A stretch of 64,000 nt of DNA from Marsupella aquatica. Its lineage: Eukaryota > Plantae > Marchantiophyta. The notes beneath the pieces were generated by a model. It had not been told where the DNA came from and made no database searches. It saw only the letters and a program-made list of their open reading frames with translations. Within the stretch, counting starts at the first letter, position 1, and every line of letters begins with the position of its first letter. This document shows positions 1 to 41,434 of the stretch, piece after piece. The position numbers and the translations under genes were made by a program. The DNA lies in NCBI GenBank assembly GCA_973895155.1, contig OZ316896.1:7024232-7088231 (forward strand), given 5' to 3'.

Positions 1-3000
1 ACATGTATGGTTTCCCTCGTGTATGCCTCTTATAAAAGTCTTCACAAGAACACGAAGGGAAACAACAGATTTGCACCCAATATGTGTGCGGAACTTGTGA
101 ATCAGTCTCGTGAGTGGTGATCAAGTATCTCCAACCCCATCCATTTCCGGTAGTTACCTTCTCATTTCCGACAACTCTCATGTGTTCTTGTGTAGTGGAA
201 ACGATGCGCTTGAGCAACTCTGGAGTATTGCTGAAACGCTATCGTGCACCCTTACCATTTCGGGTTTTCAACCGACGGTCCACATTAGTTAGATCGATTC
301 GTTCGGGGAATGAGTTAACATCAATTCGTAGGTTGACCCGATTGGGGGACGGGAACTCTCCAACTTGATTTGCATCCACATAGGAGAGTCCACTGATCTG
401 GAATCCTAATCCCAGCAGAAACTCTATCTCGGGATGGGAGAGGCAAGTCCCACGCTGAACCTTGAGCGACTCGGGTGGGGGGGTAGTTGAGCTAGAGTTC
501 TGCGTCCTCGGCTCTTGTGACACTTATTGTTAGGATAGAAGTACAACAACTGGCAATGTGGAGACGATAATCGCAACCTGTGAATGGCGACTCCAACAAT
601 TCCCCCTTGTGCGGACTTACATCCAGTCTCCTTGATGAGATTTCTACATTCATCTCTTCCAAAAACGCTTCGGTCAACCGACCCGTTGCAAACAGGTCCA
701 GCACCTCTACCGCTCCGCCTGAGATGCCAGGTCCCATAAGGAACATCAACCTCTCGGATGGAAGGGATCCTTTGGGGGGCATCCCGATGGTCATCCCCGA
801 CATCACACGAAGGTTGAGTCCCCATCTTCTCGGTATCATTGACATTACGACTTGCATCATCACCATCGTCATCTGAAATATGGATAACTCCAGCAGAACA
901 ACCTCCGACAGGGGTTGCCGAAGTTGTATTATTTGCTATTTCTAGGTCCGCAGAAGTCTCCGAAACATTGACGAAGTGAAATTCAGGATAGAGATTACGC
1001 CTTTTTAGTCCTGAAGGAGAAGCTGTTGTGCGTGACACCTTGTCATGTCTGTGGGAGTCATTCTCGTGGATTACAACTGAAGCTTTCCCTTTCCTCTTTG
1101 TGGATGTTGTTCGGAGATCGCCATGTAATGGAACTGTTCTATAGAATTCATACTTAGCTGAAGACTCAAGCAAAAGATTTGCTGCCTTTTCGTAAGCATC
1201 CATGGATCCCATAGCATCGGCGTTCCTATATGCTAATTCAAAAATGGTCGGCCCCTGGCCTCTGTGAACACCTTCACTGTAGGCAGTAAAAGTAGCAATT
1301 TGCCCCGCAGCACGATTCTGGTCCACCTCACATGCTTCAATCAATCCCACTAATTTCTTCATTTGGCAGGATCTCATGGATGCATGGACTGATTCCGCTC
1401 CAGTACAATTTGGCATCAAGGCTGACTCCATTGCGGTTTGCGTCTGCAAAAAAGTAGTCCACAGTCAGACCTGATATGCTAGCGAGGTCGCTAGCAAAAA
1501 CAATGACGTCAAATAGAAATGAAATTGGACACTTACAACGCGGATGAAGTTCCCCCACTGCCTCCACCTCACGACCCACCAAGATAACCATCCTTGGAGA
1601 GATTTCAATTTCCCAGCATAGCAGTTTCCTTCCTTCCACCAACGATGGATTTCGTCAACAACACGGTAGGCCTGAACATATGTTGGTGTTGTTCTCAGCC
1701 TTTCCCACAGTTTATAGTGCTCTCGATGGTGATCTTCTCGAATACCCTCCAATGTGTGACGACGAAGAGATTGAGCAAAGTGAAAGGCGTCACTGTGCTC
1801 CTTCTGTGGGTGACGGACACCTCCAAAAAAACATTCTGAATGGCGATCCATCCAGCCTCGGCATTATCGGCAATAAATCCTCCAATGAGTGGGTCATGCA
1901 CGTCATGATCAGAGGCAACTTCAATCATATATCTCCATGCGGTTTCAAGAGATAAGGAGTCCTCCGCACGGAGCTCACAAGTGAAGATGGTACAAAGGGA
2001 CCTGTAATTATGGTCGTACACATGGGCGCTGAAAGTCAGCCACCCAGTGCTTATTCTCCGCATTACATCAGAACTGACCCATGCTCCTTCCAGCTCACCT
2101 CCACTCTTCATCTGCCTGAGAATATCGACACCAGAACCTGGGCCATTTGTACTCATTTTGAAGACATGAGCCCTATCGGTCTTGCTCCCCTGGCCAGGGA
2201 AAAGGTACCTCTGAACGTAAGGAAAATTATTCCGTGCTTGCATCTCACGAAGAGAATCCAACTCACCTTTTTTTGGGTTATCCATTTTCATGCTCCGGAA
2301 TATGGCCTGGAATTTCTCAACAGTGGACACAACCTTCATCGATTCCCATATCTCTCTCTCTTCTTCTTTTGATAGTTCTGAAGAAGACTCTTGATGCAAA
2401 AGAGAAACCAGGTTTCCTATAGACTTGTTAAGAACACGCCCTGGCGTACACACGGGATTCGCTTTATGAACACCAGAAACTATCACCTTCGCCTGCTTTT
2501 TTGCCAATCGAGATTTCTCTTTCCAAACAACGTGGTCATGGAAACCCATGTGAATAGCCAATCGAGACATATGTTTTGCAACATTTGACTCAAGAGACAA
2601 CTTAGGATAGACATACAAAAGTTTAGCCGGACATTCACGGATGCAGAGAGGCCTCTCCTCACAGAATCCGCACACCAACCCTCCTTCCTCCACAAGCTCA
2701 CCAAGATGAAACGGCTCAGTAAATTGTCCCTTTCCTCGGAAGGAAGAGTCATTTTTTGAACCGGTGTGCTTCAACTTTCTACAGACCAGACTTTGACATT
2801 CAAGTACACCGGCACATCTGACTTTTGACACAGACCAGTGATTGCGAGGTTTGAGATTAGCTGAAGTTGTGAGAAGTCTTGTCCATGGGTAGCTGTCATT
2901 ATCCCTATCCATGTCCTGAAGACCATATCCTCGACGAAATTGACCTTCGACCGGAGGAAGCTCAAAAACGCAGTTTCCGTTGTATGAAGTGGGCAAAGTC

Positions 3001-3581
3001 TGCACTTGAATCTCCTTCCAATCGTTTCCCCTGTGGAAATTTGCCAACTTGCTTGACCCAGTAATATTGAGGAAGGCATCATATGCACTAACTCGATAAA
3101 GAACTGGCTGAGATTGAAACTTGTATTGACTAACTGCTTCAAAAACGGCTTTCTCAGAAGACTTTGTCGACACAGAAGAGAGATCCCGACCCACACTCTC
3201 AGGGGAGATGTCGATAATATCTGGTACTGTCGGTGACGGGCGAGTCGGGGATTCTGGATCAAAAACATTGATATGTGCAATGTCATCCTTACATGAGACT
3301 AGCTCCATAGCTGAACCACACTTCAGGTCCCAAGCTCTCTCTGGAAATATTCCTGAACCATTATCCGACACCTCGTGACTTCTGGATCCATTCCGAGAGT
3401 AAAGGACAAACAACTTCCAGATGAAATCATCTTTCAAAAGCCCAAACCTCGACGAGAGAAAAGACTCCTTGACATAGATAATAGTATTCTCCGGAACATC
3501 TAGAACAACAACATCACCTGTAGTCTTTCTCTCGATCACAACCTTCGATCCCAATGAAGACATGTTGACAGTTTTGGACAT
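1..3581 (-). pseudogene. Mutator-like (MULE) transposase: GCM-like Zn domain + DDE core + C-terminal SWIM finger; disrupted, runs off the left edge
   Basis: ORF 1695-3581 has DSYPW..TTS, CAGVLEC..C, CGFC..CPA..HMGFHDH (GCM/WRKY-GCM1-like), then WVSSDV and GFIADNAEAGW. A frameshift at the A-run ~1824-1831 leads into SDAFHFAQSL (MULE C/DxxH). After a GT-AG intron ~1536-1446 comes CTGAESVH (catalytic E). The frame at 1-238 reads YWVQICCFPSCSCEDF (SWIM). Confidence 0.8.
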
Positions 3582-3590
3582 TACAGTCTA

Positions 3591-3707
3591 CAATCTCTTT
3601 TGGTTGCTCTTTTCTTTGATTGCATTGTACTTTACTTTTTGTGGCAGCTCCTTTGACTTTCATGGTCCCGGAGCTTATAATACATTACCATTACCATTAC
3701 CATTACC
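3591..3707 (+). mobile_element. Short 3' end of a LINE with (CATTAC)n tail
   Basis: Near-identical to 19674-19790, the 3' end of a longer LINE fragment. Flanked by ACAATC on both sides (possible TSD or microhomology). Confidence 0.8.
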
Positions 3708-4372
3708 AACAATCCTCAAATGTGAGATACTTCGCTCTCTTCTTTCTCCAAATACATATGAGGAAACGTGCTTGTGTAGTGTTGGACTCAACGTATTTAT
3801 TTAATAAATGCCTCTTATTCCCGTTATCTGACCATTATTTTGTCTTATATGACACTATTTACGGAATGATAAAGCTAGCGAGATCGCTAGCTCAATGATC
3901 TAAGTAAAATGGTTCAAAACCTTACAAAACACCCTTCACTAGTTCATAGATTTAGTGATCAATTTTTGGCTAGCGATGTCGCTAGCAAAAGTAGTTTCTT
4001 ATAAGAGACCATTATGACCGTTTATATCCGTTGGAATTTGTCAACGGGTACCTATATGTCAACGGTACGGTACATTACCGGACACCTGTCTCTTTGTCAT
4101 TAGATACTTTTCTTTCAGTCGTGAGTTCGGTGGTTCGTATTTCCGGAAGTACATGTATACCTGACAGTGTCTAAAAAATGATTGCGAGGAGAGTCGTACA
4201 GAATATCTGTATCTCTTTTCACGATCGGGCGTTGCATTCAGGTGAAAGCAACAGACGAGGGTACGATTTTGTCTTTGACTGGAAGATCGATTCTCGGGTT
4301 TCTTTATGTTCGCAAAGCGTGTCGCCCTCGACCTTGACCTGTTCATACCCTTATCACTTCACGGACCCACTG

Positions 4373-7300
4373 ATGGAGCCATTGTCTTCACCCGAGAGCT
4401 TGTCATCAATAGGATCGTTCAAGTCAGTCGAGTCAAGCCGAAGGGAGACAAGGTCTACAGTGAACAAGAAGGCGCTCCAGGCGGGATTGAAAACACCGAG
4501 GAGGCCCAAGATGGTGAACCAAGTAGATGTTGTGAATCCTACGTTTCAACCTGGAGCTTCAGAACCCTATTCTGTTGTCATCAATCGCCATCTTTTCCCT
4601 TTTGGAAATGATGAATTTGGATTCCCCCTCGCTCCTCCGAGGATTCCCCTTTGCAGAATGCAAAACATGCAGATCATTCGGTCCTTGCAAACAAACTCGA
4701 CTACGATCGAGACACTCAAGAATGAATTCCAGACGCAGGGATACATCAAAGATGCGCCTCGATTTTACGTCCAAATGATCGGCAAAGATGGCCTTGTCCA
4801 GATGTGCGAGGATGTGATTCGGGAGTCGTGGGATGACATGTGGATTCTTCAGAATGAAGAATTCGAGAGGGAATGTGATTCTCACGAAGCTTTCAAAATT
4901 TTGAAAGACAAAATGTTCTGTGTTTTTGATGGAAATCATCGTCTGTACTCATGGATGCAGCTTGCGGACGAGAATCCCCATGATGTCAAATATCATCCTT
5001 GAGTTGTTTGCTGAATTTTCAAGGGTGACAAGAACTCATTCGTTCAGATTGAGTCGGCGATGCATGCGCTGAATAGGTTTGTTTCTTTTCCTTCAAGCTC
5101 TGAATTGTATATAAAATTCTTTCAGTTCCTCTTGTTAGCGATCTCGCTGACCTGTTTCTTTTGTTCAGGTTGACTCAATGTCACGTTGAGAATTCTTGGG
5201 TCCTTGAAGCAGAGAGAGTCCAGAAGGTGCTCAGTAATGACCTTTCTGTATACAAAGATATCATCGATGCAGACAACTACAAACTTTTCCAACAGAAGAT
5301 GGCAAATATCAGGAAACCGGCTTGGTATTCGAAGAACATGACACTCGATGCCTGCACATACATTCTATCTGCTGCTAATATTGCAACGCAGACGGAAGAT
5401 TTGAAGAAGAAGTTCCAATTGAAAGAAGCGCAAGGAGAACCTCTTTCAAAAGCTGCGCAAGACATGGCAGTGAAAGACATGATGAAGGAGCAACTAGCAG
5501 ATTGGAATGTGAAGGTGCCAAAGATTGGACCTCTCCTGAATCCTGAGTTTGGTGACTTTTTCCAGAAGTGTGTTGAGATGCACAACTACTGCGAACATGA
5601 GAGGAAGGAGGCCCAACGAACAGACGATAAAGGAAGGGGTAATGTGTCATGTGGTCTCGATCGTGCGAGGCTATTTACGGGTGTCTTGTCGTTGACTCCG
5701 CAGCTCAGATGTGTACTCCTCGAGGCACAATGCAGACCTGAGCTTCGCAAGAAGTACTTCCACCCTGGTCAATTCTCGAACAGCAAAACAAAACTTTGGC
5801 TTCACCGATGGGCTGTCTGGGAGCAAGTTGAGTCAATTTGTTCTTCGCTCATGTCTGAGATTATTTCAGATATGATCCCAACTGTCCCAGATGCAAGGAT
5901 CCTTACTTCCTCTGAGAAGACAAAGCCATCGTTGATCCTTGACATAGAGGAGGACTTTGAAGATTTCCAAACTAGAGTGAAATCTTGTTTTTTCAGACAG
6001 ATTTGGCCACCAAAGTTGGGTGAGAAGATTGACATCTCACTTTTTCGGAGGAGGGCGAAGAGATATACGTATTGTTTTTTTGTGGATAGAGAAGTTGCTG
6101 ACAAAACATATTGGTGGTCCTATCCTGCTTGCTTCTCGCCCTCCGTTAAATATGGAGAGTACTCGATGTACCCATGTGAGGGAGTGGAGGCTCCAAGGAA
6201 GATGAGTGAGTGGGAAGTCCTTCACTGTCCATGGTATTTAGAATCAGACAAATGGGCAGTGACATTTGACACAGCAGAGAAGGTAGCATTTCATATGATA
6301 AATCGAGGCTTGATACCAGAGTCGTACATTACAGAGTCCAAATTAGCTCCTGCAGAAGCCGAGGCTGGCGGATGTGAGGCAATGGAGAAAGTTGTTCTTG
6401 GTGTAGCTGCCATTGTCGACCGGAGTAGATCGAGGAGACCTCGCAAGGTGCCGGTGAAGGACACGTCCAAAGATGGATCAGTCTTGTCTGGGAAGCAAAG
6501 TAAGTCTTTTTCTCCTCTTTTTTTCATACCTCATTCAGAGTAATTTTGTCTCAGTCACCTGTCTAACATTAACATGTTTTTCAGAGAAGAGAAAGGCTGC
6601 AGCCTCTGGGAGTTTGAAGAGTGGGGCGGATGATGGAGAAGAACCCAAGTCTCCTGATGTTGAGGTCACAACAAAATCTGCTGTGGACCTGGGTTCAATC
6701 AAGCGTTTAAAGAGGAAGCGCAATGTCCAAATTCTCTCCGACTCGGATGAGGAGGAAGCATGCATCGCGCAAGGAGTAGCACGAATGTGACCTTAAGAAG
6801 GACGGTGAGAGGCATTTCTTGGCAAAGAGCAATCTCATGGAAACTGCAAACTCAATTAGCCAGAGGAAAGTAAGACCTCCCTGGATGGGCGATGCGGATC
6901 AGTGGTTGTCTGGAGTGAGCAAATCGAGCGAACACCCAAACGCCATGATGATCAACGGAAAACATTATGCTGGAATTGGTGCTCACTTGGGTTTCATATT
7001 CCTTCCCACGGGTCATCGAATGAGTGTCACAGACCGGGAGGTCCCGAAGTGGAATGTTTGGAGTGAGAAATTACCATATTATTTCTTTGGAGTCATGCGT
7101 CCGATGCTTGCCGATGATGGTTATGTCGCAGTTCTTCACAGCTCTGACTATAACCATATGAGACAATTTTTTTCTGCCATTGAGCAAAAGAACAAATTTA
7201 AACATGTTCGACAGTATTCGGTTTTGCTTTCATCTCCTCTGTATCAGGCAGATATGGACATCGAGGTAAGATATACTCAATATTTTTGTGCAATTTTTGC

Positions 7301-7885
7301 TAGCGAGCTCGCTAACCAAAAGTGCCCATTTCTGACATATTCTCATTTTCAATTCAGGTGGTTACTCTCATTATGGATGTCTTCTGCAAGGTGGAATTCT
7401 CGGCAAAAGTCCCGAAACATACAGGATATGTTCCAATGACTTCCTCTGAGGATGCCCGCCATAACTCGATGTTGAGTGTTTGCTACCCAAAAACTGATCC
7501 CAGTCCCAAGGCGGCTTTTGCAGGTTCCAATAGATTGTCAGTTGGGTTCATGCAAGCCGTAATGGAGATCCTTACTTTGCCAAAGGACATTGTCATTGAC
7601 TGGACTATTGGAGATGGAAGTGCTTTTTCCGCTGGGGAATATGCTGGGAGATTTGTTGTGGGTGTTGAAGATCGAGACATTCTTCATCTGTGTGCGCAAA
7701 AAACTTTGGCAAATGTGTTGGATAGACATGCCCAGAAGTTGAAAGGGGCCGCAGACCCGAAAAACGATGATCCCAATGATGAAGGGTCGGATGATGAGTT
7801 CACCATCCCAGGAGATGATCAGGGAGGACCTTCAGACGAGAAGGATGAATTCGACCTGGAGCAAAGCACTTGGCCTTTGATGTAG
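4373..7885 (+). pseudogene. Spliced gene: ParB/Sulfiredoxin-like N-terminal domain + C-terminal N4C/N6A (beta-class-like) methyltransferase-like domain
   Basis: FCVFDGNHRL at ~4916-4945 (ParB DGxHR motif). C-terminal VMEILTLPKDIVIDWTIGDGSAFSAGEYAGRFVVGVE resembles the SAM-binding end of N6_N4 MTases, and RPMLADDG resembles RVLKPGG. GT-AG introns at ~5078-5169, 6500-6584 and 7266-7357. In-frame stops at 5000 and 5012 and a disruption near 6790. Confidence 0.65.
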
Positions 7886-9029
7886 AACTCCCTATTTGGT
7901 GTTTTTCTTTTGTTTGTAGAATTTTCGGATGTGTAGTATTGATCCGATTCTGGTGATTTCTTTAGTGATAGGTGTTCGGATTGGTTTTCGGAGGAGAGAT
8001 TCCGCCTTCGGAAAGAAATCGAGAATCATTTTCTTGTGACCCCTGAGAAGGGATTTGCGCTTCCATGCTATGCTAAAAAGACTGCAAAGGAGGGTGATGA
8101 AGTGCCCGTCGTTTTGACTTGGGAGGGGAAAGGTCTGCGGTCAGTGAGGGGTGTTCAGAAAGCCCTTTACTGCCCTCGGTTCATAGATGATGAGGCTGGG
8201 ACTGTAGCACAGTATGTTGACGATTCGGCTGAGGAGACTGATAGGGAGTCAAGTAGCGATCCTAGTAATTCCTCAGATGATTTGGAATCAGAGGATTCTC
8301 AATGACTCATGGTCAATTTCAGATGCAATCTCATTCTAGAAGATATTTGTCATACCAAAGTTTTATTAAAGATGGATTGTGAAAGGTTTTTTGACCTGGT
8401 TTTGCTCATTGTGATGATGCCTTTTCATTCAGTTCAGTGTAGTGAAGATCTCGATTTTTGCATTTGTGAATATTTAAGTTTCTGCATTTTTGTTTTCCGT
8501 AACTGTTTCACAATATATATCGACAATCTTACTTGGGAATCCGCCTGAACTACCCTGAAGTTACGCACAAACTTGCCTCGCTAGCCTGCTGTCCTCGCTA
8601 GCAAAACTCCTGTTTGCTCGCACAATAGAATACCTCTGAAGAACTCATTGTCGCATCGTCCACATCCTCACAGAGCCCCACACCTTTCCCTGCCTTGCTT
8701 GCATACATTTTGCTCTGCTGCCATTATTATGAAAGAGCTTACGTGAACTGTTTGTTTTGACATTTTCTCCCAGTTGTTGACAAGTATAAAAAACAAACGT
8801 AGCTGATTGACTGACCCTAATCTTATGGACAAGTGTTTCCTGGACGTCCAAGTCTAACTGGGCACCTCTATAGGTAACCCATAAGGAGTTACGTCTTGGA
8901 CATAAAACAATTTTATGTCCTAGGTTGTAATTCAGTTAGGGGGTGCATTGACACGCCCTAATGTCAGGCTTTGAGATGCCCTAATAAGGGTTTTCCCTAG
9001 TTTCCTAACTCTTAAACTATCCAATATAT

Positions 9030-11470
9030 ATATCACAGTGCCCAAGGGCAAAGAATGACAAACCACAAGACATGATCCCAAAGGCAAAGCAACCTAATGA
9101 AGGGGAGGAAAAGAGGGGAAAAGGCCAAGAAAAACCAAGCCAAGGGGTCCCTAACCAAAAGCCGACAAAAATGTAACATATATAGGAGCCATGAAGGCTA
9201 ACACCCTACTAAGCGAAGAACTGATCAAAAAGCCTGGTAGAGCTCCGGAGTAAACCGCAAAGGAGGGTCCCAAAGTGGAACCTGAAGGGAGGCTCTAAAA
9301 CCAACTGCCTCAGCCCTACAAAGGAGGGTGAAAGCCTGGGCCCGCTGAAGAGCCACATACACCCGCTGCCAAAAAAGGCGATGAGGACATAACAAGGGGG
9401 AAAGGCCTCCTCTCACTACAATAAATAGCACATGCCCACGGGAACTGCTCAAAGGTAGGGTGGAGAGCACCAAAAACCTCAATGGCAAAGGGGTAGAAAA
9501 GATCCCCTAAGTAGCAAACTGCATAGGCCTCCTCCTTGAGCCGGCGGCCTTGGCAGCTGCATGGCCAGGCACATGGGCGGTGACCGCGACATGGTTCCCT
9601 CCGGTAGGGTCAACAACAACCACATCCCCAAGAGCATGAACTCCAACCGTAGAAAAGACCCGCCTTCGGTCAGGAAGACGATGCAAGGGGGAAGAACATG
9701 TCGTTGCTCCATGGCGTCATGGTAAATAGAGTCTCGGGCAATGGCAACTACCACATCCCAAATATCATCATGGGTGGCAGTCCTCTCGCTCCCATGGCCA
9801 CACCTCAGAATATGAACTCTCAATGAATCCAACGATGCCCCCACAAACACACTTGGGTTGGCCAAGAAGGCAAGGGTGAGCAAGTCCCAACCTAAGGCAC
9901 AATGAAGTGGTAAAGAGGAAGGAGCTCATACGAAGGGGGTCCATAAAGGACTAGCAGATAGCCACGCTTCAGAACCAGTTCCCGCACAAGATAGGAGATG
10001 AGCTCAAACCAAGTCTGAAGGTGCATCCGAGAGCATGCTGGAAAGGGTGTGACGGTGCATGCGATTGGAAATCACCTACTGGACACGGTCCAAATTGTCT
10101 AGAACCACCTCCATGAAGTTAGGAACAACGGCTTGCACAACCTTGGGCCCTGCCTCGGCCAGGACTAAACGGGTCTAGCAAAGGCAAACCTGGAAAGAGA
10201 GGACCCCCTCCTCAACCCCCATGGCGTTGTTAAAGAGGATGGGTTGGAGATCCACAATCAAGCAAGAAGCAAGGGAAGGGCCACCTAGTACTCCCAACTC
10301 CCAAGGCATGCGCATGGGGCAGTGGAAACAGCTAAGGAAATACCCATGCCACCGCTAGAAGGCGTCAGGGAAACCTGTCAAGCCATAAAAGAACCGTCCT
10401 CTCCATCAAGGGGTCTAGGGCCAATAAGGTGTCTAACAATCCCCATCACATTGGTGTCAAAGGATGAGAGAAAGGACAAAAACAAGGGAGTGGGCGGAAC
10501 AGTTTAGAGAAGTATGAAGGGTGTCGGACAAAGCACTAGACCAAAATCATGAAGGCAATTTGGACGTCGCCAAGGGCCACCAACTGGTCGATGTGAAGAA
10601 CATCCTGAGATAATGCCACCTGCAAAAACTCATGGGCAAACATATCCTCCATGAATGGGACCCCCAGGACCCCTAATGCCCTCCTCACGAAGGGAGACAC
10701 CAAGGGGAGGGGAGAAAGAATTTGGGAGAGGATGCAGAGACCAGACCCCGCACTTCCAAGACTGCACCAAAAGGCCAAGAAGCGCTAGCTAATCAACAAA
10801 GTGGAGATAAGCATCCCCAAGGATTGAGATGGGCCCCACCAAATGAGTATCATTAGCAATGGACAAGAAACATGCACCCGGGCAGGGCAAGCAAAGACTC
10901 CAGGAGAGCATAAAAGTGCCATGGCAAATAAAGCCCCATCGATGGGCACGAGAGTGCCTGACTCAGAAAGAATCATTGTGTAGGACCCATGACTAAGTCA
11001 GTTAGGATAGAACAAAAGGGCACAGGTCCCATAGAAAGCCCGAACAAAAGGAATGAGGGAGGCAATCTCCCCACTAGCCTCCCGCAACTTTTCAAAAATA
11101 GCATGTCGAGAGACAATGTTGAAAGCATTGGCCAAGTCCACCTACATGACCGCCCAATCAGGATGGATATTTGCGATCGAACGTAGACCATGCACTACAC
11201 TCTCACAACCCCCCGCCTAGGGTGACCACCTCAAACTGATGAGGGGAGAGTTGAGAAGCAAAAGGTGATTGAGTTTGAAGGAAAACACAACAACTGACCA
11301 TCCAGTAAAGAATTTCACCAATGGCAAGGGGCCGCACCCCAGAAGGCTCCTTGGCCATCGCCAAAAGACGGTTGGCCCCCAGGAGCCGGGCCACAACAAG
11401 GGGAATACGGCTCCCAACAACATGAGCAAAGGTCCCATGGAGGAGGCTACTTTAGCAAATAAGCAGGTGA
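9030..11470 (-). mobile_element. CRE-like (restriction-like-endonuclease) non-LTR retrotransposon, degraded and 5'-truncated
   Basis: RT N-terminal motifs RLLAMAKEPSGVRPLAIGE..LSPHQF..GG (11203-11394). C-terminal zinc knuckle HILRCGHGSERTATHD (9479-9883). Many frameshifts. Confidence 0.7.
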
Positions 11471-14400
11471 GTTCAGGGATTCACTTGGTTAACCTATTAC
11501 TAGGGTTACAATATGCCCTTTGAAGTAGGGTAGAATTTTTAGGGAATTGTATCTCTCTTCTCACAAAATTCAACCAAGTGAGGGACTCCACACTTAGGGA
11601 GGCAATAAACCGGGTATTGAGGGCCAAGTTTTTTGTGCCCCAGTGATTCAAGTTGAGTTGGGGGCCCATTGAGACAGATGCCAAAGTAAAAAATGGACTG
11701 GTCTCAGTGCATTTGGACAAGCTAGTTGCTTAGACCCATGAGCGTATCTTGGAGGCAAGGCGGCAGCCATTGACAAGTTGAAAATGGGGAAACAAGGGCA
11801 TGCCTAGTAGAGTTGCTCCGGACAAGCAATGGGAGTCAAGCCTTTGTTTCCGCTTATGGCAAGACTAGTGTGAGACCAATGACATGGTCCTTATTTGGCA
11901 ATATGATTGAATTTGTATGCGGTACACAACAAGTAGTTGTTGAGACTATGTATCAATTAGCAAGATGGTGAATATTATGGCAATCATGTCCATTAGAGTA
12001 GGGATATATGATAGTTCATTTTTCTGAGCACACAACCAAGGCAGGCAGAGTTACTATTAGGGCCATAAATGAGTGGCTGGAGGAAGAGAGGATTCACCTC
12101 CTTTACCATACCATTGTGCTAATGAGCATGATGGAGCACGGAGGCTCTCCAGGACATCGGTGCAGAGGTAGACATGGTAACTCATGGAAGCAAGTCTCCA
12201 CAACTAAGAATGGAGCTATGTGAGAGGGTGATTTTTCTCAGCATATCACCAATTGTTTTGTGTGTGCATGTTCTTCTTTAGTCAGGTTAAGAGATCCATA
12301 GTGAACTCATATTAGCACGGGTTTGAGTTAGTCTAAGCTTGGCCTCGGCTTATCACAGGTTAGCTCGGCCTGAGCTTAAGTTAAACTTGGGTTTAGGATA
12401 GCTTGAACTGGGCTAGCACAGCTCACCTTGGGGTTGGGCTCAACTTCGCCTAGATTAGCGAGTAGCGGGTTAGCCTAAGGCCGTGGGTTAGGTATAGTCG
12501 GGTTAGATATATAGGATAGTTGGGTTAGCCATTCTTGGGAGTCACTCTACCTCGGCATTGGTTTGACTGAGGGCCCCCTTCAAGGTTTGGCATAGCTTTA
12601 TCCCTTCATGAACTCCATCATGAAAGTCACGCAATTCTGCCATGTACACACCTCAGGATGATCATACTAAAGAGGGTCCTCTGATTCTTTACAAGCAATT
12701 TCCAGGAGCAATTCCAGCCCCTCCAAATGAATGTGCTATCTTTGTCCGGGTCCTCCGCTTCCTTATCTTGCACCGTCTCATCTCCCAGTTCAGGTGGCAG
12801 CTTCTTGGCTAGGACCTCCATGACATTAGTGGCTATCCTCCTGATCTTGGTGGTGAAGGATGGCATGGCTTCTTTCTCAACTTCTAGGAAGGGGATGAGT
12901 CCTTCTGCCCTGGCCAACAGAAAAGACCCAATCAAATGGATCATTCCTCCAGGTCTCATACTATTCGGATCTATCGTCAAAGCCCTTTTCAATCCAAAAG
13001 ACAACCAACCGGATATACACTCCTGGCCAGTGGGCTTTTATGTCCATGGCAATAGCCAACTGATCCCCATTGACCACTCCAGACCGTCCTCGACTGTGTA
13101 TCTATGCCACAAATCCCTTGTACACTGAATCTTTGAAGGATGGGAGGGGAATGTTGGTTACAAAAGTGGGCTCCTTCACCAGTTGAGCCAACTTCTCCAA
13201 TGTGAGTACCCCGAGTGGCTCCAACGAGTAGAATGTGACATCCTGGTTCTATAGTAACAACAATCTGGTCAACTCCTCATTGGAAATTAAATAATGTATG
13301 CACCAAAAAATATCCCCTCCGCTCGCAACTCCATTCCTTCCTCAATGTCCCAGCCTTTCCCTAGGGGAATCCTCATTTTCACTCTCATCATATCGGTCAG
13401 CCCAGTGGCTTGAAATGTCTCCTTACAATCCTCTTGAACCCCCGCTAGAACCGGGGCAAATGTCTCGGGGTAAACTCTCCGAAAGGTCTTCCTAGCAATT
13501 GATGCCCCACTTGCTAGCTTTTGGTCCAGTGGTCATGGCTGACATCCTCGTTTCTTCCTCTTGGGCAATCCATAAAGCAATGTAATCTTGGTAGGCTGCC
13601 TTGTGTATGCAAATATGGGCTGCAGTGAACTTCGGTGAGTTGGATGATGGTCTCATTCACAATCCATAGAACTCAGGAAATACCATGATGCGCAAATTCT
13701 TGTTTCCCCAAGCCCGGACAACCCTTTATCACAATCCAATTCTTTCATCAATTCACCCCAAGATCACCAAACGGGAGTACCAAGCTTCAAATAAAAACAC
13801 CATAAGAGCATTCAAAACTGTGGAGAGAGAAGGTTTTTCAAAAACAAGCTTTCATAAATGTGAGGGAAGCTTTCAGAAGCTTGAGGGAGAAAACAAAAAA
13901 GATCAGGGCGTGTGGAAAAATTGGGGAAGCTTTTCGAAGAGGAACCCCCAAGCTTCCTTATATTTGCTCCCCGTTCCCCTTCGCTCCATCTTGCTCGGGT
14001 GCGGAAGCACCCAGGCCCCCTTCCTTCTTCTTTAGACACTATCCTTGTCATGGTCAGTAAGTCATGGGTAGCACACAACCCAAGAAAAATATCTCTATTT
14101 TTACCAGTTTGTTCCCATGGAAGAGCTTAGGGTGGGACCACAAGCAAAAGACGGATAAAAAATTTCTTAGAACCAACAAAATCCCACCTCTATCTTACAA
14201 GAAGCTGGAAAGCTCTCTCGACTTCAAATAAATGTACTACAATCATGACAACAAAACACATCTAACTCTCCACAAGAACTTCCTCGTTGTGAGAGTGCCA
14301 AATTTTACTAAGTGCTAATAAGCAGGCTAGGGAAAACCTGTGAGTAACCCTCTACTAAAAGCTCAAAGCTAGAGATACTGAGGCCTTCATAAGGAACTGC

Positions 14401-15164: not shown

Positions 15165-15685
15165 GTAGTTTCTTGTGTTGGAGGACAGATTCCTTGTTGC
15201 TTAATAGAAGCTTTGCCCAAGTGGAGTGGAAGCTAAGACCAAGAAGCATATGCTCCCAATGTTGATATTAGTAGGAGAAGAGAGGGTTATGACCCGGCTT
15301 GCAATTCACATAGGTGAGCATAACCATCCTAGTAGAAAGACCCTTCTCAAGGAGTGCATAGAAGATGATTGAGGATTTGATTAAGAAAATCATGAACCCA
15401 ATCCTCTGGCAAAACCAGCAAGGATCTTGAATTCTGCTATAGGGTTGATAGTGAAAGCTCTTTGCAAACATGTTCACGATATGGTTGATATCAAAGAAAC
15501 TGAAATTTGGAAGTCTCTGATGGTACTTTCCACTCCCCAAAAATTTGCATCTCTTTTTGAAGCATTAGGATAGACCAAAAGGGTGGGGGGTGAGTTAGAT
15601 TTTCTTTTGCAAATGCAAAAGAGGATTAACCTTTCATTTCTCCAAAGGTATTTGCTACCAGGTCAGGGTTGTCAAGACAACAGAC
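15165..15685 (+). pseudogene. Second copy of the GCM-MULE transposase, 5' part (split by retroelement insertion)
   Basis: Translates MTRLAIHIGEHNH (~15289) and GELDFLLQMQKRINLSFLQRYLLPGQGCQDNR, homologous to MSRLAIHMGFHDH and GELDSLREMQARNNFPYVQRYLFPGQGSKTDR in 1695-3581. The left boundary is approximate. Confidence 0.8.
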
Positions 15686-16045
15686 TGTCATGCCAAGGGA
15701 CAGTGCCTCTTGTGCACATCGGCATGTCCCTCGCATGCCAGCTAGGTATGTAGTTAGGGCTAGTGTACTACTTGAGTTAGTGTCATGTTCTTGTAGCGAG
15801 TTTGGGCTATTCTTGAAGCAAAGGTGTTTGTTAGTGTGATGCCTGGACCCGGTCCTACTTAGGGCATGTTTTTCTTTGCCATTTTTCAGTTATTCTTGAA
15901 TCGTTGTTGACAGAGCTCAGACAGTGCTCGTCGGTTCCGTACACGAGATTCACACAATGATTCGTTAGATGCTCCCGGGCGATCTTGGCATCCCGCCGGT
16001 TTTCGATTCGATTTCAGTACGCTTGTTTCTCTCACGCCTTTTATT
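15686..16045 (+). repeat. Terminal repeat A1 (~360 bp)
   Basis: Matches 41435-41645 + 45265-45413 with about 10 mismatches by eye. Not followed by B. Confidence 0.9.
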
Positions 16046-17563: not shown

Positions 17564-19375
17564 ATGTCAGCAGAGGAGCCGAGTCGTAGCAGCTCATCAC
17601 CACCAACACCCCGGTACCACTTACGGAGTGATCCATGACCGTTGGTGCCAATTTTGACGACGCCAGCAGACAGCAGCAGCACCCACACCATGCAATCCTT
17701 CTGCTACATTTGGCAATCGCTTTACCACTACCCCGAAGCCTGCTATTGCTTCTCTACCCTTTACTCCTTCTGCATCAGTAATTGTTCCAGCTTCATCGAC
17801 ATACAGCATGGATGCCAGTCACTCATCTAGCCGCATTGAGCGCTTCAGTGGGCGGCCCGACACTGTTTCTTTGCGTGAGTTCAAATCCACTTTCTATACT
17901 GTCATTTACGAATTGGAGTTGAAGTATGGCAGCAATTTCACAAATGTGTTTGCATTTAAGCAGCTAGCCAGGTATTGCACCATGAGGCTTTGGATGTGTA
18001 TGAACAGCATTCTCAATGGCTGCTTGCTGTCACACAGTTGCCTAACCCTACCTATGCCAGTGCAATTGCGGCAGCCTCACAATTGGCCTTACAGAATGCC
18101 ATTGCAGCCCATGCTGCTGCTCCTACCACTTCCCCTCCTACTCCAGTTCCTACCACTGCGACAGTTACTCCCACTGTCTTGGCACAGGCTACATCAGACA
18201 TTTCTCCCACCATTGATTCCCCTGCCTTTGCTGATCCAGTGGCTGAGTTTTTCCAGGTTCTTGAATTGGAATTCCCAATCAAGAGTGCTGACAAAATCAT
18301 GCAGTTGGCCACCTTTGTGAGGCAGCGCGATGAAACATTGAAGATGATATATCGCCGGCTTCTCAAGCTGAAGGAGGACACCCAGAGCATCACTGACCTG
18401 GAAGCTGCTCATCGCTATCTTCGCGCATTGGAGGGCACACCAGCTCTCCATTCGCAAGTGTTGCAACAAGTATTCTCAGAGTTTGGAGACAGCTACACCC
18501 TACTCAATGTCTATGACACTACTGAGAAACTTGAGTTGGCCCATGCACATTATGAGGCCAGTATTGCGCATCCACCACGATCCAGGTACCAAGCTGCTGC
18601 CCCTACACTGGCCACCCCTTTCCGTGTGCCACAGTATGGTTCCAAGACCAAGCCAGCCCATGCTGCTTTCATGCTGCCATCTTGCAACTATTGTGGTAAC
18701 CCCAATCACAAGGCTAATGAATGTGATATTATTGCTGAGGACCTGTCTTGTGATTTTTGCGGGAAAGTGGGTCACTTGGAGGCAGTTTGTTTTGCCAAAT
18801 TCCCAGAGAGGAAGTAGCAATGACAGTAGGCCTCTCATCCTACTCCTATTTCCACTCCCCCACCAGCTAGGAGGGCTCCTACTGCATCAGTTGCTGCTCC
18901 TTCCAGTGGCAAAGCACCCGGTGCCAACAAATTGCCCAAGCAACAACAGAAGCAACCAGCTCAGAAGGAGGCTCACAACGCACAGGCAACTCAACTCCAG
19001 TCTTTGACTCATGAGGTTGAGTCCTTACGTGCCCAACTTGCCAACATCAAAGGCAAGTCCACTGCTTCTGCTGGTCCTTCTCAATCGGCTGGTCACGTGC
19101 AACCCATCCCTGGCCCAGGCACCACTGATAGCTCAGCATCTCTACCCTGCTCTTTCTATGGCTTGCCATTTGATGCTCATATGGGTGAGTGTGTGTTTTC
19201 CTCTGCTACACAGCCTGGCCTTACAGCAGAATTTTCAGATTCATTTTGCCCTTCCTATTTTGCTTACCAGCAGGCCAGTGCTGCCTCCCGTATTGCTCCC
19301 ACACGCCGCATTGTATAGGCTGATGGTCTTGCTGCCGGTCCTATGACTAGAGCGAGGGGAGCTCGGGCTGTCATG
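17564..19375 (+). pseudogene. gag of the gypsy-like element
   Basis: IERFSGRPD gag-like start, two zinc knuckles (CNYCGNPNHKANEC, CDFCGKVGHLEAVC). Stops at 17636, 18815 and 19316, plus frameshifts. Confidence 0.8.
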
Positions 19376-19788
19376 ATGGAAGGATATTGACAGGAAAAAG
19401 AGGGTTTGTCAACTATATGATAGCTCTAGTATAGAGAATGAATATCATGTATTCATTGCTTGCAAGTTTTATGAGGGGGTTAGGATGGCATCTCAAATCT
19501 TGGTGAAAGATTTGTATGCATTGTTTGGTCTGCCCCCTCAGCAACTTGGAAGATATATCTTTGCGGTGGATAGGGAAAGGAGAATAGGTTTGGAAAATCT
19601 TTCAGGGCTCTCTAGGTCCATAGGGCTCTCTAGGTCCATAGTTTCTTTGAGGACATAGTTGTCCTCTTTTGAGCAATCTCTTTTGGTTGCTCTTTTCTTT
19701 GATTGCATTATACTTTACTTTTTGTGGCAGCTCCTTTGACTTTCATGGTCCCGAAGCTTATAATACATTACCATTACCATTACCATTA
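19376..19788 (+). mobile_element. 5'-truncated LINE (RTEX/L2-like C-terminus) with (CATTAC)n tail
   Basis: Encodes KRVCQLY..ENEYHVFIACKFYEGVR (LINE ORF2 CCHC end). Removing 19376-19788 rejoins gag and protease in frame (RAVM|PQSF). No TSD seen. Confidence 0.75.
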
Positions 19789-21018
19789 CCCCAATCTTTT
19801 CAGCCACTCACACTTGCTGAAGAGCGCACCTTGTTGGCAAGGGGGGAGGGAGCTGCAGCTACATCCATTCCACCACCAGGTGCTGCTGACATTTCACAGG
19901 GAGTTGTTTCTCCTGAGTTACTTGAGCATTTCACCTCCCGTATGGCACAAAGGATTCTTACAACTCCACTTTTCAGTTGCCATGATTTACAACTGGATGC
20001 TAGAGCTGTCATGAGAGCGCTAGCAGGCTCATTGCATTCTTCATCAGCCCTTGTGCCACCAGTTTTGGAGGTCCAATCTCATGTACATACTGGACCTTCT
20101 TCTTCTCCATTACATGCTTCCACTGGTTTGGCTATCCCAGTACCAATTTCCAGTGGTAGCGATGATAGTATTGCTGCAGATTGTATGACCAGAGCTACAC
20201 TGGATTCTGGTCATGCTGCTCCATCTTTCCTGACTATGCTGTTGAGTGGAAAGACCGTGGATACTAACTCCCTTCACAAGGTACCTCATCATTTGCCAAA
20301 AGTGGTGCCTAGCGACAGGACTTCAATTTCCACCACCATTGCCATTGTTGACAATAGGAATTCAACAATCAAGTTGGAGGATCACACTCCTCAGGTGGTC
20401 ATGCTAGACACAGGTGCTCAACCAGTGATATTGGGCATTCAGTTTGCCAAGAAGATGGGACTGCTGACTGATCATTTACAGCAATCCAAGTGGCACATTC
20501 GGACTACTAGTGGCACTGTGGAGGATGTGTTGGGTGAGAGTTCTACTTTACTCACTCTCACTTTTAATGGAGGTACAGATCAGGAACTGCATTTCCCAGT
20601 CAAATGTTTGGTTACCAATGCCACTACGTATGATGTGCTCATTGGCCAGGAGGCTTTGTTCCCACCAGGTTTTACCATTGACAACTGGCATGAGCATGCA
20701 TACTACAGAGCTAATTGGCATACGGATGGCTCACACTTGGGCTACATTCCACTTGATTTGCATGGTGCTCATACACCTATGGCTCACCACTGTGTGTTGA
20801 AAGCAGTGCACACAGCTACCTATGTCAACCACCCATTGCAGGATTGGATTGAGGAGGATGATGATGAGGTGGCTGCTGCACATGCTGTTGCACGTATAGC
20901 AGCACTTTCCATCAATGTAGATCATCAACCAAAGGTGGTACAATGGCTCCAAGCAGCCCTTGGACCTTTGGTGGCTGCATTGCGCAAATTTGAGGACCTT
21001 GGGCAGCACAATGGATAA
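19789..21018 (+). pseudogene. Aspartic protease region of pol
   Basis: VMLDTGAQPVILG catalytic motif and YDVLIG C-terminal motif. Confidence 0.85.
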
Positions 21019-22272
21019 CCAATAGCCCCAATCTTGAGCGCACCAGTTACATGGACTCCTCCTTCGGATGACCTTACATTGCTTGAGCTTTTTGGTGGCA
21101 TTTCTACAGGCCTGGAAACTCTCCTACAACTGGCATGGTGGTGAAGCAGTACATCTACGTGGACATTGATCCAGGTGCAAGGCAAGTGGCTGAATCCCGT
21201 CTGCTGGAATTTTCAAAGCAATTTCCCCAGCAGTTTCCACACAGTGCATGGAAGTTTGCATTTTCTTTCTTCCCTCCAGATATCCAGCTTGTCCAGCACC
21301 GGCACTTAACCCTTCTTGGCTCCCTTGATTTGATCATAGTTGGTTGGGAATGCCAAGGGTTTTCAACTGCTGGTCACGGTGCTGGACTGCATGATTCTCG
21401 TTCTGGCCTTTTCACAGCATTGGTTCAGATTCTCACCTGGGCTCAATCCCTTTATCCTGCTGTTGGTTATATCATTGAGAATACTCCATCTCAGTTTGAC
21501 CAGCGTCCACAAGTCAAAGAGGATTTCAGTGTGGTCCAGCACTACTTGGGACCACCCCTTCTCATTGATGCAGTGCACTGTGGTTCTTATGCACATCGTT
21601 TTCATAACTTTTGGACTAACCTTGCACCACCTTCCTTGCTGGAGTTAGCTCTTCACCACACATCCAGGGACACTAACCTCACAGTGGACCAGATTTTGGA
21701 TCCTAACAGTTCTTGCCAACCAGTTACACGGCAAGAGCCAGCACCTTGGTATCCAACCAATACCATTGGACAGCCCCGTGCTGCTTGGCCTATATTTGTG
21801 TCCTTTCCAGGTGCACATGCTTTTCAGGGTGATGGTCTTGGCCTGGTTTATCGACATTCTACCGGTACATGGGATGAACCTAGTCCTGAGGAGAGAGAAC
21901 GGGCTATGGGCTTCCAACCCGGTACTATAGGTCACACCAAGATCACCAGGCTGGCCAGGAATGCTTTACTTGGCAGGGTAATGGATCTTAATGCTCTCAC
22001 TTGGCTTCTGGTCACTTGCATCCTTTTTCAGATGTACATTCATCCAGCATCTGGAGTTCCAGCTCTACCACTCCATGGTGCTGCTACATGGCATCCAAAC
22101 CAGGTGCACTTACCTCTATTCAACACTCACTGCTTCAGTCCAAGTGTTGGGGGGGAGGAGGTCCCTTGTAACGTGATTGACAATATTTCTGAGTTTCATG
22201 GTGTGGACCAACTCCGATCAACAGGTACAACAGGCCTTGGAGAGGCCTCATCACCTTATCAGCAGCATGCTA
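21019..22272 (+). pseudogene. C5-cytosine DNA methyltransferase domain (DNMT3-like) within pol
   Basis: Motif I LLELFGGISTGLE (~21077). After a frameshift ~21130: YVDID, GWECQGFS (motif IV, Cys retained), IIENT (VI), AHRFHNFWTNL (VIII), ERERAMGF (IX), RNALLGRVMD (X). Confidence 0.85.
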
Positions 22273-23177
22273 CACTAGTAGAAATTGGGGTGTTTTATGA
22301 CTAAGTTTTACGACTGCCCATGACTCCTTGTGACTAAAGTTTGGGGGGTATCAAGCCAGTCGTAATTTTGACATTCAGTCTTATTTAAAGTGACTGAAAT
22401 TGAGTGGTCAACTATGTGACTAGGGTTTAAGACACATTTTGTGACTAATAACGACCAAATCCGTACTTGGGCATTTTGGGATTTGGAGAAGGTGTAGTCT
22501 TACAAATGACTACTTTTGTAGTCATTTGTATGACTCAAAATGAGGTATGAATTAGTCACAAACAGTCAATGAGGAAGAGTTTCCTTTCGCATATATGACT
22601 GGTGCTATGGTTCAATATCGGAACACAGGCGACTGATTATGACTAGTTGGTCTTAAAAGTTTAGAGTGTATGGGCACATTAGTGACAGATCATGACTACA
22701 GATGACTAATCATTCTTAAAAATCTTAAGATTGGGCTAGACTGGTTGGTCTTATTGGGGACCACGATGTAATATATCACGGTCATATCTTAATGACCCAA
22801 AATGACTCATTAGTCTAGTTCACGACTGCATTCTTTGACCTTTTTGGTCAAAATTTTGACTCGACCTAAGGCAATTGGAGCCTGCACATAGCACTAGAAC
22901 CATGACTAATAGTCAACTCAAGCATACAAGCATACATTCAAGCACTCAAGCATACAAGTACACAAGTTTTACATGAAAACATGAGAGACAACATAGTTCT
23001 ATTTGAATCTTAGAACTCATATTAACTATTGAACACACATACATAATTTCATACAAACAAAGTTGTCACAACATGATCAGTGGATGATCCAGTGAATCTC
23101 AATTCAACTCTGCATTATGAGATATCTAGGTAACATTTGGCACCAATCATGCAGTTGTTTCTAAGTTTAGGCTAAAA

Positions 23178-29900: not shown

Positions 29901-30732
29901 CATGTATTGACTCATAGTTCAGCCCAAGTTTTGATATCAATCTCTTTGCCTCGTACATGTTTTTTGGCACTAGATTACCTCCTGGTAGCACTGTTTTTTG
30001 CAAGAAGGCCAGAACCTCGGACACAAAGATGTTTGGCACATTGTGGTTCCCACAAATATTCAGAAACATTAGCACAAATGCTAATTTGGAACAATTGCTT
30101 CCTGGGAACAGCGGATTGAAGGCCTCCTGAACTTCGGTTGGGGAGCCAAACAGGGTGTCCTCTCCAGCTGTAGCCTGTTGCCCAATCTCAAACTCATCTG
30201 AAGACTCGTGGTCATCACCCGGTGCGGTCTCAAACTCTTCTACATCTTCCATGTCCCGCATTGCATCCATGTCCTGGAAAATATCCTGCACCATTTGCTG
30301 AACATTGATCCCTTTTTCTGCAGGCTGCTGAAGGACTTCGGACCCACCCAGTTGAGTCATCACATTTGCCAACCAACCAGTGAAGAACTGGTCTCGCCTT
30401 GCACTATTTGCATTCTCAAAGTCAGCCCTCCATTCCTCATCTGAAGAATCAGCCTCATTCGGATTGTTTGTAACACGCCAACGAGGGTGTCTCCCATGAA
30501 TTGCCAAGTGCCCATGAATCTGCCTCAAGACTCTGGTGTGGGAGCCATTGCATTGAGTGCAAGGACATCTCATTCGTGAACTTGGACCTGACCGTGCCAC
30601 TTTGGCCTGTTCCCGATTCCAGAGCTTCTGGTCATGTTGGGAAACCCTCATTGGATGATGTAGAGGCAACCTGGCAGATGTTGGATGGGTCCAAGGGGGA
30701 GGGTGACCTACGGACACTCTTCTAGACTCCAT
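26992..30732 (-). pseudogene. CACTA transposase (Tnp2/TnpD with DUF4218/DUF4216-like C-terminus)
   Basis: Motifs CPCTQC, IHVCPDG..CPTCGKHRY, FPIIPRL, RNVRLGLSLDG, YNLPPW, IDVYLAPLVEEL, ADYPA, HRQFLPSDHPYRR, IDVMHIEKN, FPPAFFDVMTHL, YPLERYM. Stop at 29194; introns ~28840-28956 and ~27760-27885. Confidence 0.9.
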
Positions 30733-31145
30733 CTTAGAGTTTAGAACACAGGCACTCAGATTTAATTGTCATTTCATTATGAAAGTGGAAAATACATTTC
30801 TTGTTTAGTTGTGTTCCGATGTTCACACTATCTACCAAAACATATGATATGATATAGTGTAGTAAATCATGCATAGACTTTCTACAACCACCAAAAAAAC
30901 AAGAAAGGTTCCTGAATCGTGTACCTATTCTCAGGTCACACTGTAACAAAATTCCTAACTGTCTCAGGGTGTCACCTCCTTTGCTGTCCTCACTTATACT
31001 GCCTCAGTCTGCAATGGCCAACCAAGCACGTACATCCATGACCATATCAGAGTCCAATCACCTATAGTCATAGACAAACGTGCCTGGTGTGAGAGCAGTA
31101 TGAGATCTCCTCATGTTATTACCAGAGTTCATCTGGATACCCGCC

Positions 31146-32660: not shown

Positions 32661-33279
32661 GTACACACACCCTACGTGATCAGAGTGAATATTGGAAGAG
32701 TGGGTTCACCTGCCAATAGAAGGACACCAAAATTCCTGCTTTTTAAGTTGATCCGGTCCACTGTTGCTCAAGTCCAATTTTGATAGGTACAGGGGATATG
32801 TGAACAATAAGTACTAGGCACCTGCACCGATGCAAGACATTGTTTGAGTATATACTAGGAAATCCATATCAAAGGTAAAATGAAGTGCAACCAACTTGTC
32901 ATGGCCGCACATACATATTTTGTTGTAAAGGAGGATACATTCAATGACAAAGTTATAGGGCAATTTGATTAATTGCATGCCTGATAATTTATATGCTTAC
33001 AACTTTGAAGTCCTGTTTTAATTTAGCAGTCTGATGAGAGTGTTTGTGAAAATGACCACTCAGCCTAAATACTTCCAAGAAGGCTTGTAAGGATAATTTT
33101 TTATAGGCATGTACCCAGCCACTGACGCTAGAGCACAGGATAAGTGCTGCCTATACAAACTTGCCTACCCAACTCCTTTTCAAAATTGGAATCTCTGCAA
33201 TCCCCAAAAAATAGTACATCCACATCAGGTGCCCTGTGCATGTACAATGTTCAGCTTCACAGCCAAGATATGTGATCTC

Positions 33280-41256: not shown

Positions 41257-41432
41257 TACAGAGGTTTACACCTCCACTACGTACATACCACCTCAGTTGC
41301 TTTTTCTTGGCACTTGTGAATGTGATTGGACTTTTTCTAAGGATGTTGGTTGCTAGCAGCTTGCACATATGCATTGCCGGTGACTTGTATGTTTTTGATA
41401 CACTATGGCTACGATACTATAATGTCACGATA
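41257..41432 (+). repeat. Repeat B1, preceded by a polypurine tract GGGGGGGA (41249-41256)
   Basis: Matches 45414-45585 and ends CACGATA, followed by GC and then A2. Confidence 0.9.
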
Positions 41433-41434
41433 GC

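Follow-up and report, generated by a model that had tools for sequence, protein, structure and literature searches.

Proteins that join a ParB-like part to a DNA methylase part have been described from algal transposons. Opposite its transposase, the Ectocarpus element Sola1-1_Ec32 is described as carrying a ParB-like protein of 1104 amino acids (aa) with an N4-cytosine/N6-adenine (N4C/N6A) methylase part, and it has been proposed that this protein binds and modifies the transposon that carries it (Dinatale et al. 2025, PMC12477816). In red algae, the accessory gene PAG2 is reported to combine an N6A methylase with SET, and PAG3 a ParB-like part with a 2-oxoglutarate (2OG) oxygenase, while the inverted-repeat arrays of Plavaka elements adjoin PAG3, which was proposed to bind them (Petroll et al. 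2025, bioRxiv 10.1101/2025.02.11.637652). ParB-linked methylases are also listed in algae by Iyer et al. (2016, PMC4738411). Among host genes, MpDN4MT1a/b of Marchantia are described as sperm N4-cytosine methylases with a TSPPY motif and proven activity in making N4-methylcytosine (4mC) (bioRxiv 10.1101/2021.02.12.428880). Accessory genes with ParB-like and methylase parts are already in print for algal transposons, and their fusion is not a new idea; among the matches listed in a full-text literature search, no report of such genes in bryophytes or land plants appeared. Here we describe a candidate accessory gene of this kind, which lies beside a transposase-like gene near the start of a 64,000-nucleotide stretch (the window) of Marsupella aquatica contig OZ316896.1, positions 7,024,232 to 7,088,231 of the forward strand. 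The accessory gene is real, is longer than first described and is dead in the window copy. With moderate confidence, we read it as the second of the two genes of a multi-copy DNA transposon, here in a dead copy with five exons. Its intact product of about 1190 residues would combine a ParB fold with an altered methylase and would likely bind palindromes, without being a standard methylase.

A decayed accessory gene in a multi-copy repeat

The first-pass annotation had placed here a spliced gene on the + strand that opens at ATG 4373 and stands divergent (head-to-head) to an open reading frame (ORF) on the - strand 785 bp away, and this arrangement held. The end that it gave, 7885, did not, as the TAG at that place belongs to intron 4 (7882-7965, GT..AG), past which there is one more exon. 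We rejected the earlier end because the product of the fifth exon matches the tails of two Riccia proteins, P0138 (E 1e-4, 35% over 55 residues) and P0137 (E 0.017). The introns predicted from the sequence are 92, 85, 92 and 84 nt long, and 4/4 have GT..AG borders; the third donor was placed at 7266-7267, which makes intron 3 span 7266-7357. The public runs compared with the stretch, contigs in every case, had no splice joint at any of these introns. Exon junctions upstream of intron 4 were spanned by homologous proteins in alignments (A1, A2). The motifs named by the same annotation, DGNHR, IFLPTG and DIVIDWTIGDGSAFSAGEYAGRFVVGVED, are all encoded in the gene (Table 1). They are not chance, since these blocks recur in 118 database proteins retrieved with exon 2 and in 26 Riccia proteins that were found through the C-terminal domain.

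The 118 relatives were found in a HMMER search with exon 2 at E <= 1e-3, 18 of them at E <= 1e-30, and are for the most part short pieces of ORFs in ENA and Logan assemblies, with identities of up to 43-65%. Ten clusters were looked up, of which six had names, and all six were hypothetical proteins of the liverwort Riccia sorocarpa, including the full-length relatives P0126 (1207 aa) and P0028 (1191 aa). When a Riccia C-terminal fragment was used as the query, 26/26 matches were from Riccia, many of them split or fused gene models, as expected of annotated transposon relics. Identity between the window protein and the Riccia proteins is 22-33% in the compared domains, and the window protein therefore falls in a related but distinct family. 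Several members (Riccia P0124, P0126, P0127 and others) carry the UniRef label 'Trimethylguanosine synthase', and one each 'Profilin' and 'Plant heme peroxidase family profile'; these labels look like automatic names or fused transposon-relic models, not functions. Exon 2 had no match in Pfam, and the profile of the central alignment found nothing significant among PDB sequences. A homologue search with exon 2 among longer proteins returned none, and a metagenome scan with the single protein gave 61 pattern matches and 0 relatives. In a protein atlas, the best score of exon 2 was 0.87, to dynein clusters, which we took as noise.

The window copy is unable to make the protein, given two in-frame TGA codons in exon 1 and a 2-bp deletion that shifts the frame in exon 3. 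Base readings from other copies covered position 5000, within the first of the two TGA codons. In four public runs, most of the contig depth there is C, which restores CGA (Arg), with 13053/13053 in run X3 and 461.7/666.6 in run X1, and aligned relatives carry R where this TGA stands. When the X1 majority was compared with the window, 107 of the 178 differing places had T or A in the window against C or G, and 25 had the reverse. This excess of C-to-T and G-to-A would fit a silenced copy whose methylated cytosines were deaminated. The same genomes probably also contain intact copies.

The transposon setting proposed for the gene was supported by contig depth. Contig pieces on 4300-8400 numbered 659-3750 per run at 85-99% likeness, and a scan of positions 1-12000 counted 207-7661 pieces per run at 90% likeness or more. 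In that scan, summed word depth was even over bins 1-8400, which span both genes, and dropped past 8400, about five-fold in X3 at bin 8401-8800, to the level of the zero-difference flanking contigs. Summed depth is not copy number, and here it only indicates that both genes are part of a unit with several copies. Because it is high over both genes and falls after about 8400, we place both in one multi-copy repeat, with a right edge between about 8400 and 8800.

Predicted domains and an 18-bp palindrome

The front of the protein is predicted to fold as a ParB/sulfiredoxin (Srx) domain, so that the earlier ParB-like call is borne out by the predicted fold and not by a sequence profile; sequence searches recognised no known domain in exon 1 or in 19 aligned relatives. 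An AlphaFold2 model of exon 1, built with 18 relatives, had a mean predicted local distance difference test (pLDDT) score of 62, with core blocks at 64-90 and the first 62 residues disordered. Searching the PDB with this model, Foldseek placed only ParB, Noc or sulfiredoxin entries in its top 11 rows (best E 0.083, probability 0.92), and nothing reached E <= 0.001. Ten ParB, Noc and KorB entries compared by VIA-align gave Z scores of 6.2-6.8 over 92-102 aligned residues at a root-mean-square deviation (rmsd) of 2.6-3.2 A, the best being Myxococcus ParB 37-131 (Z 6.8, rmsd 2.7 A, 95 residues). In an independent fold search of 48,161 representative PDB chains, 12 reached Z >= 2, with KorB the best at Z 6.1. 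Six of the 12 bear ParB, KorB or Srx titles (KorB, two sulfiredoxins, PadC, the N-domain of pNOB8 ParB and Spo0J), and the others are a free serine kinase, SbnI, Atu1540, SspE, BrxU and a DndBCDE-DndI entry, which we take to be ParB/Srx-fold or DUF262 proteins; no chain of another fold is apparent in the list. The DGNHR motif, kept as WDGNHR in Riccia and in unnamed relatives, falls on a strand-to-helix turn of the model (E182-185, H190-200), presumably the strand-helix place where the arginine-rich box of ParB sits.

The back domain is a diverged fold of the beta-class amino-methyltransferases, as judged from its profiles, with the motif IV region placed before motif I and with homology detected at the level of the family only. 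The fourth exon of the window alone matched PF01555 at E 0.15 (12.4 bits) and PDB 5hek at E 0.079. On the same PF01555 stretch, Riccia P0124, P0127 and P0126 scored E 9.4e-6 to 5.2e-5. The Pfam gathering cut-off for PF01555, 26.7 bits, was missed by the window (12.4) and by P0126, P0127 and P0124 (23.7, 24.8 and 26.2, respectively). Across the family, PF01555 appeared at E <= 0.1 in 10 of 17 aligned members (best 1.9e-7), and a precomputed match was present in 4 of the 26 Riccia proteins. Against the PDB, the family profile retrieved M1.HpyAVI (E 3.3e-4 and 8.1e-4) and CcrM (E 2.1e-3, in two collinear stretches) and nothing else; PHROG methylase families scored down to 4.2e-9. Aligned by hhalign to two phage DpnA-like methylases, the family gave a probability of 96% and E 4e-9, over 55 columns only. 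A phage tblastn search returned weak matches (best E 6e-3), all of them methylases, and the two that we examined are stand-alone enzymes of 250 aa and not ParB fusions. With the C-terminal model, Foldseek ranked CcrM first (E 6e-6, 260 columns), followed by M1.HpyAVI and M.BceJIV, with 13 matches at E <= 1e-3. These matches were used as support only, because the model is of low confidence. The N6/N4-methylase-like call is thus supported by family-level profiles, in the motif I region only. Which families match suggests that the domains could be of prokaryotic origin.

At the place of catalytic motif IV, the missing DPPY-type motif that had been pointed out was confirmed by alignment with the Riccia relatives, where LPTG lies at that place. 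The window reads IFLPTG, the Riccia proteins LDLPTG, LDMPSG or LDLSSR, and the phage DpnA-like enzymes ADIPYN. Every aligned Riccia member that extends over the aromatic residue of motif IV has T or S there, and the window lineage is also without the Asp. Motif I retains its G-x-G loop, as GDG in the window and GGWG in Riccia. Judging from these residues, the methylase-like module may still bind S-adenosylmethionine (SAM) or DNA, and standard methylase activity is unlikely. N4C and N6A specificity are indistinguishable from the sequence.

The most useful new point is a palindrome that is specific to the element and limited to its introns and promoter. We found five sites of the form GCTAGCGA-NN-TCGCTAGC at up to 3 mismatches, compared with 0.06 expected, and 0 of 100 shuffles reached five. 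All five lie inside the repeat, in introns or in the intergenic promoter region (Table 1), and this 18-bp motif is the sole recurring perfect palindrome with 8-nt arms in the 64 kb. One copy falls in an apparent intron of the transposase-like gene (- strand), read by eye with gtaag as its donor (near 1536) and ttttgcag as its acceptor (near 1447). We considered and rejected a longer duplicated intron as the source of the palindrome sites: on visual inspection, the flanks have little in common other than a short T-run on one side and an A-run on the other at some sites. The recurring unit is therefore the motif and not a duplicated intron. Bacterial proteins of the ParB family (ParB, KorB and Noc) read short palindromes. 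For this reason, and because the Plavaka inverted repeats have been proposed to act likewise, the palindromes are by analogy likely candidates for the landing sites of the accessory protein.

Features of the repeat and the rest of the window

The positions of the two genes, of the predicted domains and of the palindromes are collected in Table 1.

Table 1. Coordinates of the features of the two-gene repeat in the window
Feature	Position	Strand	Remarks
Whole accessory gene	4373-8305	+	Five exons, about 1193 codons allowing for the 2-bp gap; pseudogene here
Exon 1	4373-5076	+	Opens at ATG 4373
Exon 2	5169-6499	+	Conserved central region, about 443 residues, without recognised domain
Exon 3	6585-7265	+	Predicted exon of the accessory gene
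Exon 4	7358-7881	+	Predicted exon of the accessory gene
Exon 5	7966-8305	+	Ends at stop TGA 8303-8305
Predicted ParB/sulfiredoxin-fold domain	4628-5076	+	Model residues about 86-235 of exon 1, with a helical stretch inserted
DGNHR motif	4928-4942	+	Strand-to-helix turn in the model
In-frame TGA codons (two)	5000-5002 and 5012-5014	+	Exon 1
2-bp deletion, frame shifted	near 6785-6791	+	Other copies have +TG behind 6785 or +GT behind 6791
Beta-class amino-methyltransferase-like domain	6945-7733	+	Split by intron 3; collinear with Riccia C-terminal domains
IFLPTG at the place of catalytic motif IV	6996-7013	+	Read directly from alignments
Motif I-like SAM-binding stretch DIVIDWTIGDGSAFSAGEYAGRFVVGVED	7586-7672	+	PF01555 positions 166-211 of 221; 5hek alignment
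Transposase-like gene	1-3587	-	630-codon ORF 1695-3587; runs off the window start
Further ORFs of the transposase-like gene	1465-1863, 424-1464, 2-238	-	From the ORF list
Divergent intergenic region	3588-4372		Two palindromes and a 117-bp segment, 3591-3707
Perfect palindrome	1478-1495		Apparent short intron of the transposase-like gene
Perfect 18-bp palindrome GCTAGCGAGATCGCTAGC	3874-3891		Between the two genes
Second perfect palindrome	3969-3986		Between the two genes
Degenerate palindrome, 3 mismatches	5134-5151		Intron 1 of the accessory gene
Palindrome, 1 mismatch	7299-7316		Intron 3 of the accessory gene
Two direct half-sites TCGCTAGC	8578 and 8595 (8578-8602)		About 270 nt past the stop, near the fall in depth

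The neighbour had been called a Mutator-like element (MULE) transposase. Its divergent layout stood and the MULE label was not confirmed: neither the ORF, nor the ORFs downstream of it, nor its four homologues, which are unnamed and include no Riccia locus tag, matched a Pfam family, and the profile of the transposase alignment found nothing significant among PDB sequences. The ORF has a conserved D...D...SDAFH block, which we take to resemble the Mutator layout. Its frame changes near 1824-1830, where some family contigs have an extra A behind 1824, in the majority only in X1. No inverted repeats of at least 40 nt were found in the window, and hence no terminal repeats were seen. Three other places, 15289-16045, 41257-41805 and 45100-46281, hold fragments of a second, related transposase family with 38-48% protein identity to ORF 1695-3587. 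They share direct repeats that are 96-99% identical among the three places, and no accessory gene or copy of the palindrome adjoins them. Between the two genes of the repeat, the 117-bp segment 3591-3707 matches, at 98% identity, positions 19674-19790 at the start of the protease ORF in the retroelement-like run 17658-22304, and depth is raised in two runs in the 3601-4000 bin.

The rest of the window is eukaryotic and plant-like, with a tnp2-type transposase, a gypsy-type reverse transcriptase-RNaseH-integrase and a Nup133-like host gene whose nearest atlas cluster is mostly Streptophyta. A CACTA/EnSpm-type element at 26992-30768 (-) comprises a tnp2 ORF (PF02992, E 4.8e-54) and ORFs with DUF4218 and DUF4216. 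A run of retroelement-like ORFs at 17658-22304 (+) begins with gag-like ORFs, followed by a gag-aspartyl-protease ORF (19651-21018) and, directly after it, a 405-codon ORF (21087-22304) that matches the C-5 cytosine DNA methylase family PF00145 at E 7.2e-6 and 26.1 bits (cut-off 22) over profile positions 49-102 only. This last ORF may be a retrotransposon-borne DNA methyltransferase. At 31788-34014 (-), a BRCT domain (E 1.2e-7) and a PHD-like zinc finger (E 2.4e-5) are encoded by ORFs that may belong to a host gene between transposons. The region 9000-10000 is a lower-copy repeat with many contig joints, and with 'goes back' joints near 9050-9130 that suggest a short tandem or rearranging repeat. 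An Rfam scan of the window gave no match.

Alternative explanations and known systems

If the preferred reading is right, the intact protein would bind the 18-bp palindromes of its own element, as ParB, KorB and Noc do theirs. The methylase-like module, which retains its G-x-G loop, would bind SAM or DNA but lack ordinary catalytic activity, and the pair would help the assembly of the transposition complex or the escape from host silencing. A bolder form of the idea, possible but doubtful, is a eukaryotic counterpart of ParB/parS, where a ParB-fold protein would load on the palindromes and the altered methylase module would mark, read or shield the DNA of the element, so that a land-plant transposon family would possess a self-recognition and anti-silencing device of its own.

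Several observations weigh against the preferred reading. For the front domain, Pfam found no ParB family in 19 members even at E 10, the PDB profile search with the front-domain alignment was empty, and the only hint in the sequence was the PHROG family 'ParB-like partition protein' (E 0.16, residues 179-219). The Z scores of this domain stay below 8, a range that the tool calls common. Of ParB, the model represents the nucleotide-binding N-terminal domain alone; since no helix-turn-helix (HTH) domain is shown, DNA binding by the accessory protein is unsupported. For the back domain, the PF01555 match of the window itself (E 0.15) is not significant, homology was detected over only about 55 residues, and the C-terminal model is poor (pLDDT 42.5). 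The palindromes are only five, two of them degenerate, they are known from the window copy alone, and the half-sites near the edge of the repeat equally fit binding sites of a transposase. Finally, the left end of the repeat lies beyond the window start, so that terminal repeats and target duplication are unreadable, and it is only from depth that the two genes are taken to be linked in other copies.

Some of these points are shared by a different explanation, which we consider unlikely: the palindromes would be sites for the transposase or a host factor, or hairpins for splicing or small RNA, and the ParB/Srx domain would be a nucleotide-using enzyme or a nuclease. The half-sites TCGCTAGC lie near the right edge of the repeat, the usual place of transposase binding, one palindrome is within an intron of the transposase-like gene itself, no HTH domain is shown, and the fold matches include kinases, sulfiredoxin and restriction-type proteins. 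However, palindromes scattered through the interior of an element are an unusual layout for transposase sites, and in red-algal Plavaka, too, a ParB-like gene is reported together with inverted repeats.

Rather less probable still is that the product of intact copies is an active N4C or N6A DNA methyltransferase, tethered to the element by the ParB-like part, whose self-marking evades silencing based on 5-methylcytosine (5mC). The kept G-x-G of motif I (GDG in the window, GGWG in Riccia) would suit such an enzyme, as would the fact that the nearest phage enzymes use DIPY and not DPPY, from which D-L-P-T differs mainly at the aromatic residue. Moreover, the best matches of the back domain are true adenine methylases, and the authors of the Ectocarpus paper raise the same idea (PMC12477816). 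On the other hand, that aromatic residue is T or S in every Riccia member that covers it, the window lineage also lacks the Asp (FLPT), the profile alignment is limited to the motif I region, and the window copy is dead. The degenerate catalytic motif argues against plain methylase activity.

That the gene is a host or former host gene (e.g. a relative of the liverwort N4C methylase) lying merely beside a transposase, or a chance ORF, is very improbable: the Riccia relatives are annotated as ordinary genes and Marchantia is described as having a host N4C methylase (bioRxiv 10.1101/2021.02.12.428880), but the stretch is multi-copy with many diverged copies, the window copy is decayed with an excess of C-to-T, Riccia has dozens of fragmentary paralogues, the Marchantia enzymes are reported to carry a TSPPY that the accessory-gene family does not have, and the 118 relatives exclude a chance ORF.

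The window and its Riccia relatives place ParB-like/methylase-like helper genes in genomes of the land-plant type. To our knowledge, the function of such transposon helper genes has been assayed in no organism, and experimental handles are offered by the defined 18-bp palindrome, confined to the non-coding parts of the element, by the degenerate catalytic motif and by the intact copies that these genomes probably contain. If the protein does bind the palindromes, this would reveal the way in which a transposon tells its own DNA apart inside a eukaryotic nucleus.

Compared with known systems, the putative protein is like MpDN4MT1a/b of Marchantia in having a prokaryote-type beta-class amino-methyltransferase domain in the liverwort lineage, whereas the Marchantia enzymes, compared by their description, have an intact TSPPY and no ParB part mentioned there. 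With DpnA, M1.HpyAVI and CcrM (PF01555), the region from motif X to motif I is homologous and the motif IV region comes before motif I. It differs from these enzymes in that motif IV is FLPT, DLPT or DMPS and not D-P/I-P-Y, the N-terminal half is unalignable by profile, and the domain is embedded in a eukaryotic protein of 1190 aa whose gene has introns. The predicted fold of the front domain resembles the N-domain of ParB, Noc and KorB (PDB 7bnr, 7ng0, 8qa8 and others; Z 6.1-6.8, 92-102 residues). Unlike those proteins, it has no Pfam ParBc match, apparently does not keep the GERR-type residues, has a helical insertion, and shows no HTH or dimerisation domain.

The closest likeness in layout is to algal Sola1-type elements, with a large two-domain protein, a head-to-head transposase-like gene and repeat depth over both. 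As described, the Sola1-1_Ec32 protein has about 1100 aa, compared with about 1190 here, and likewise a ParB-like front and an N4C/N6A-type methyltransferase back. It belongs to a 21.5-kb Sola1 element of a brown alga, whereas our transposase-like gene has no Pfam family and its host is plant-like; furthermore, motif IV is degenerate and the copy dead here, and the likeness is one of published description. The red-algal PAG2 and PAG3 of Plavaka and Mutator elements share with the window gene, according to their description, a ParB-like domain in a transposon accessory gene, element-borne repeats and an N6-adenine methylase-like domain. There, the ParB and methylase parts are reported on two proteins and the repeats form tandem arrays, whereas in the window gene both parts are on one protein and single palindromes are dispersed through introns and promoter.

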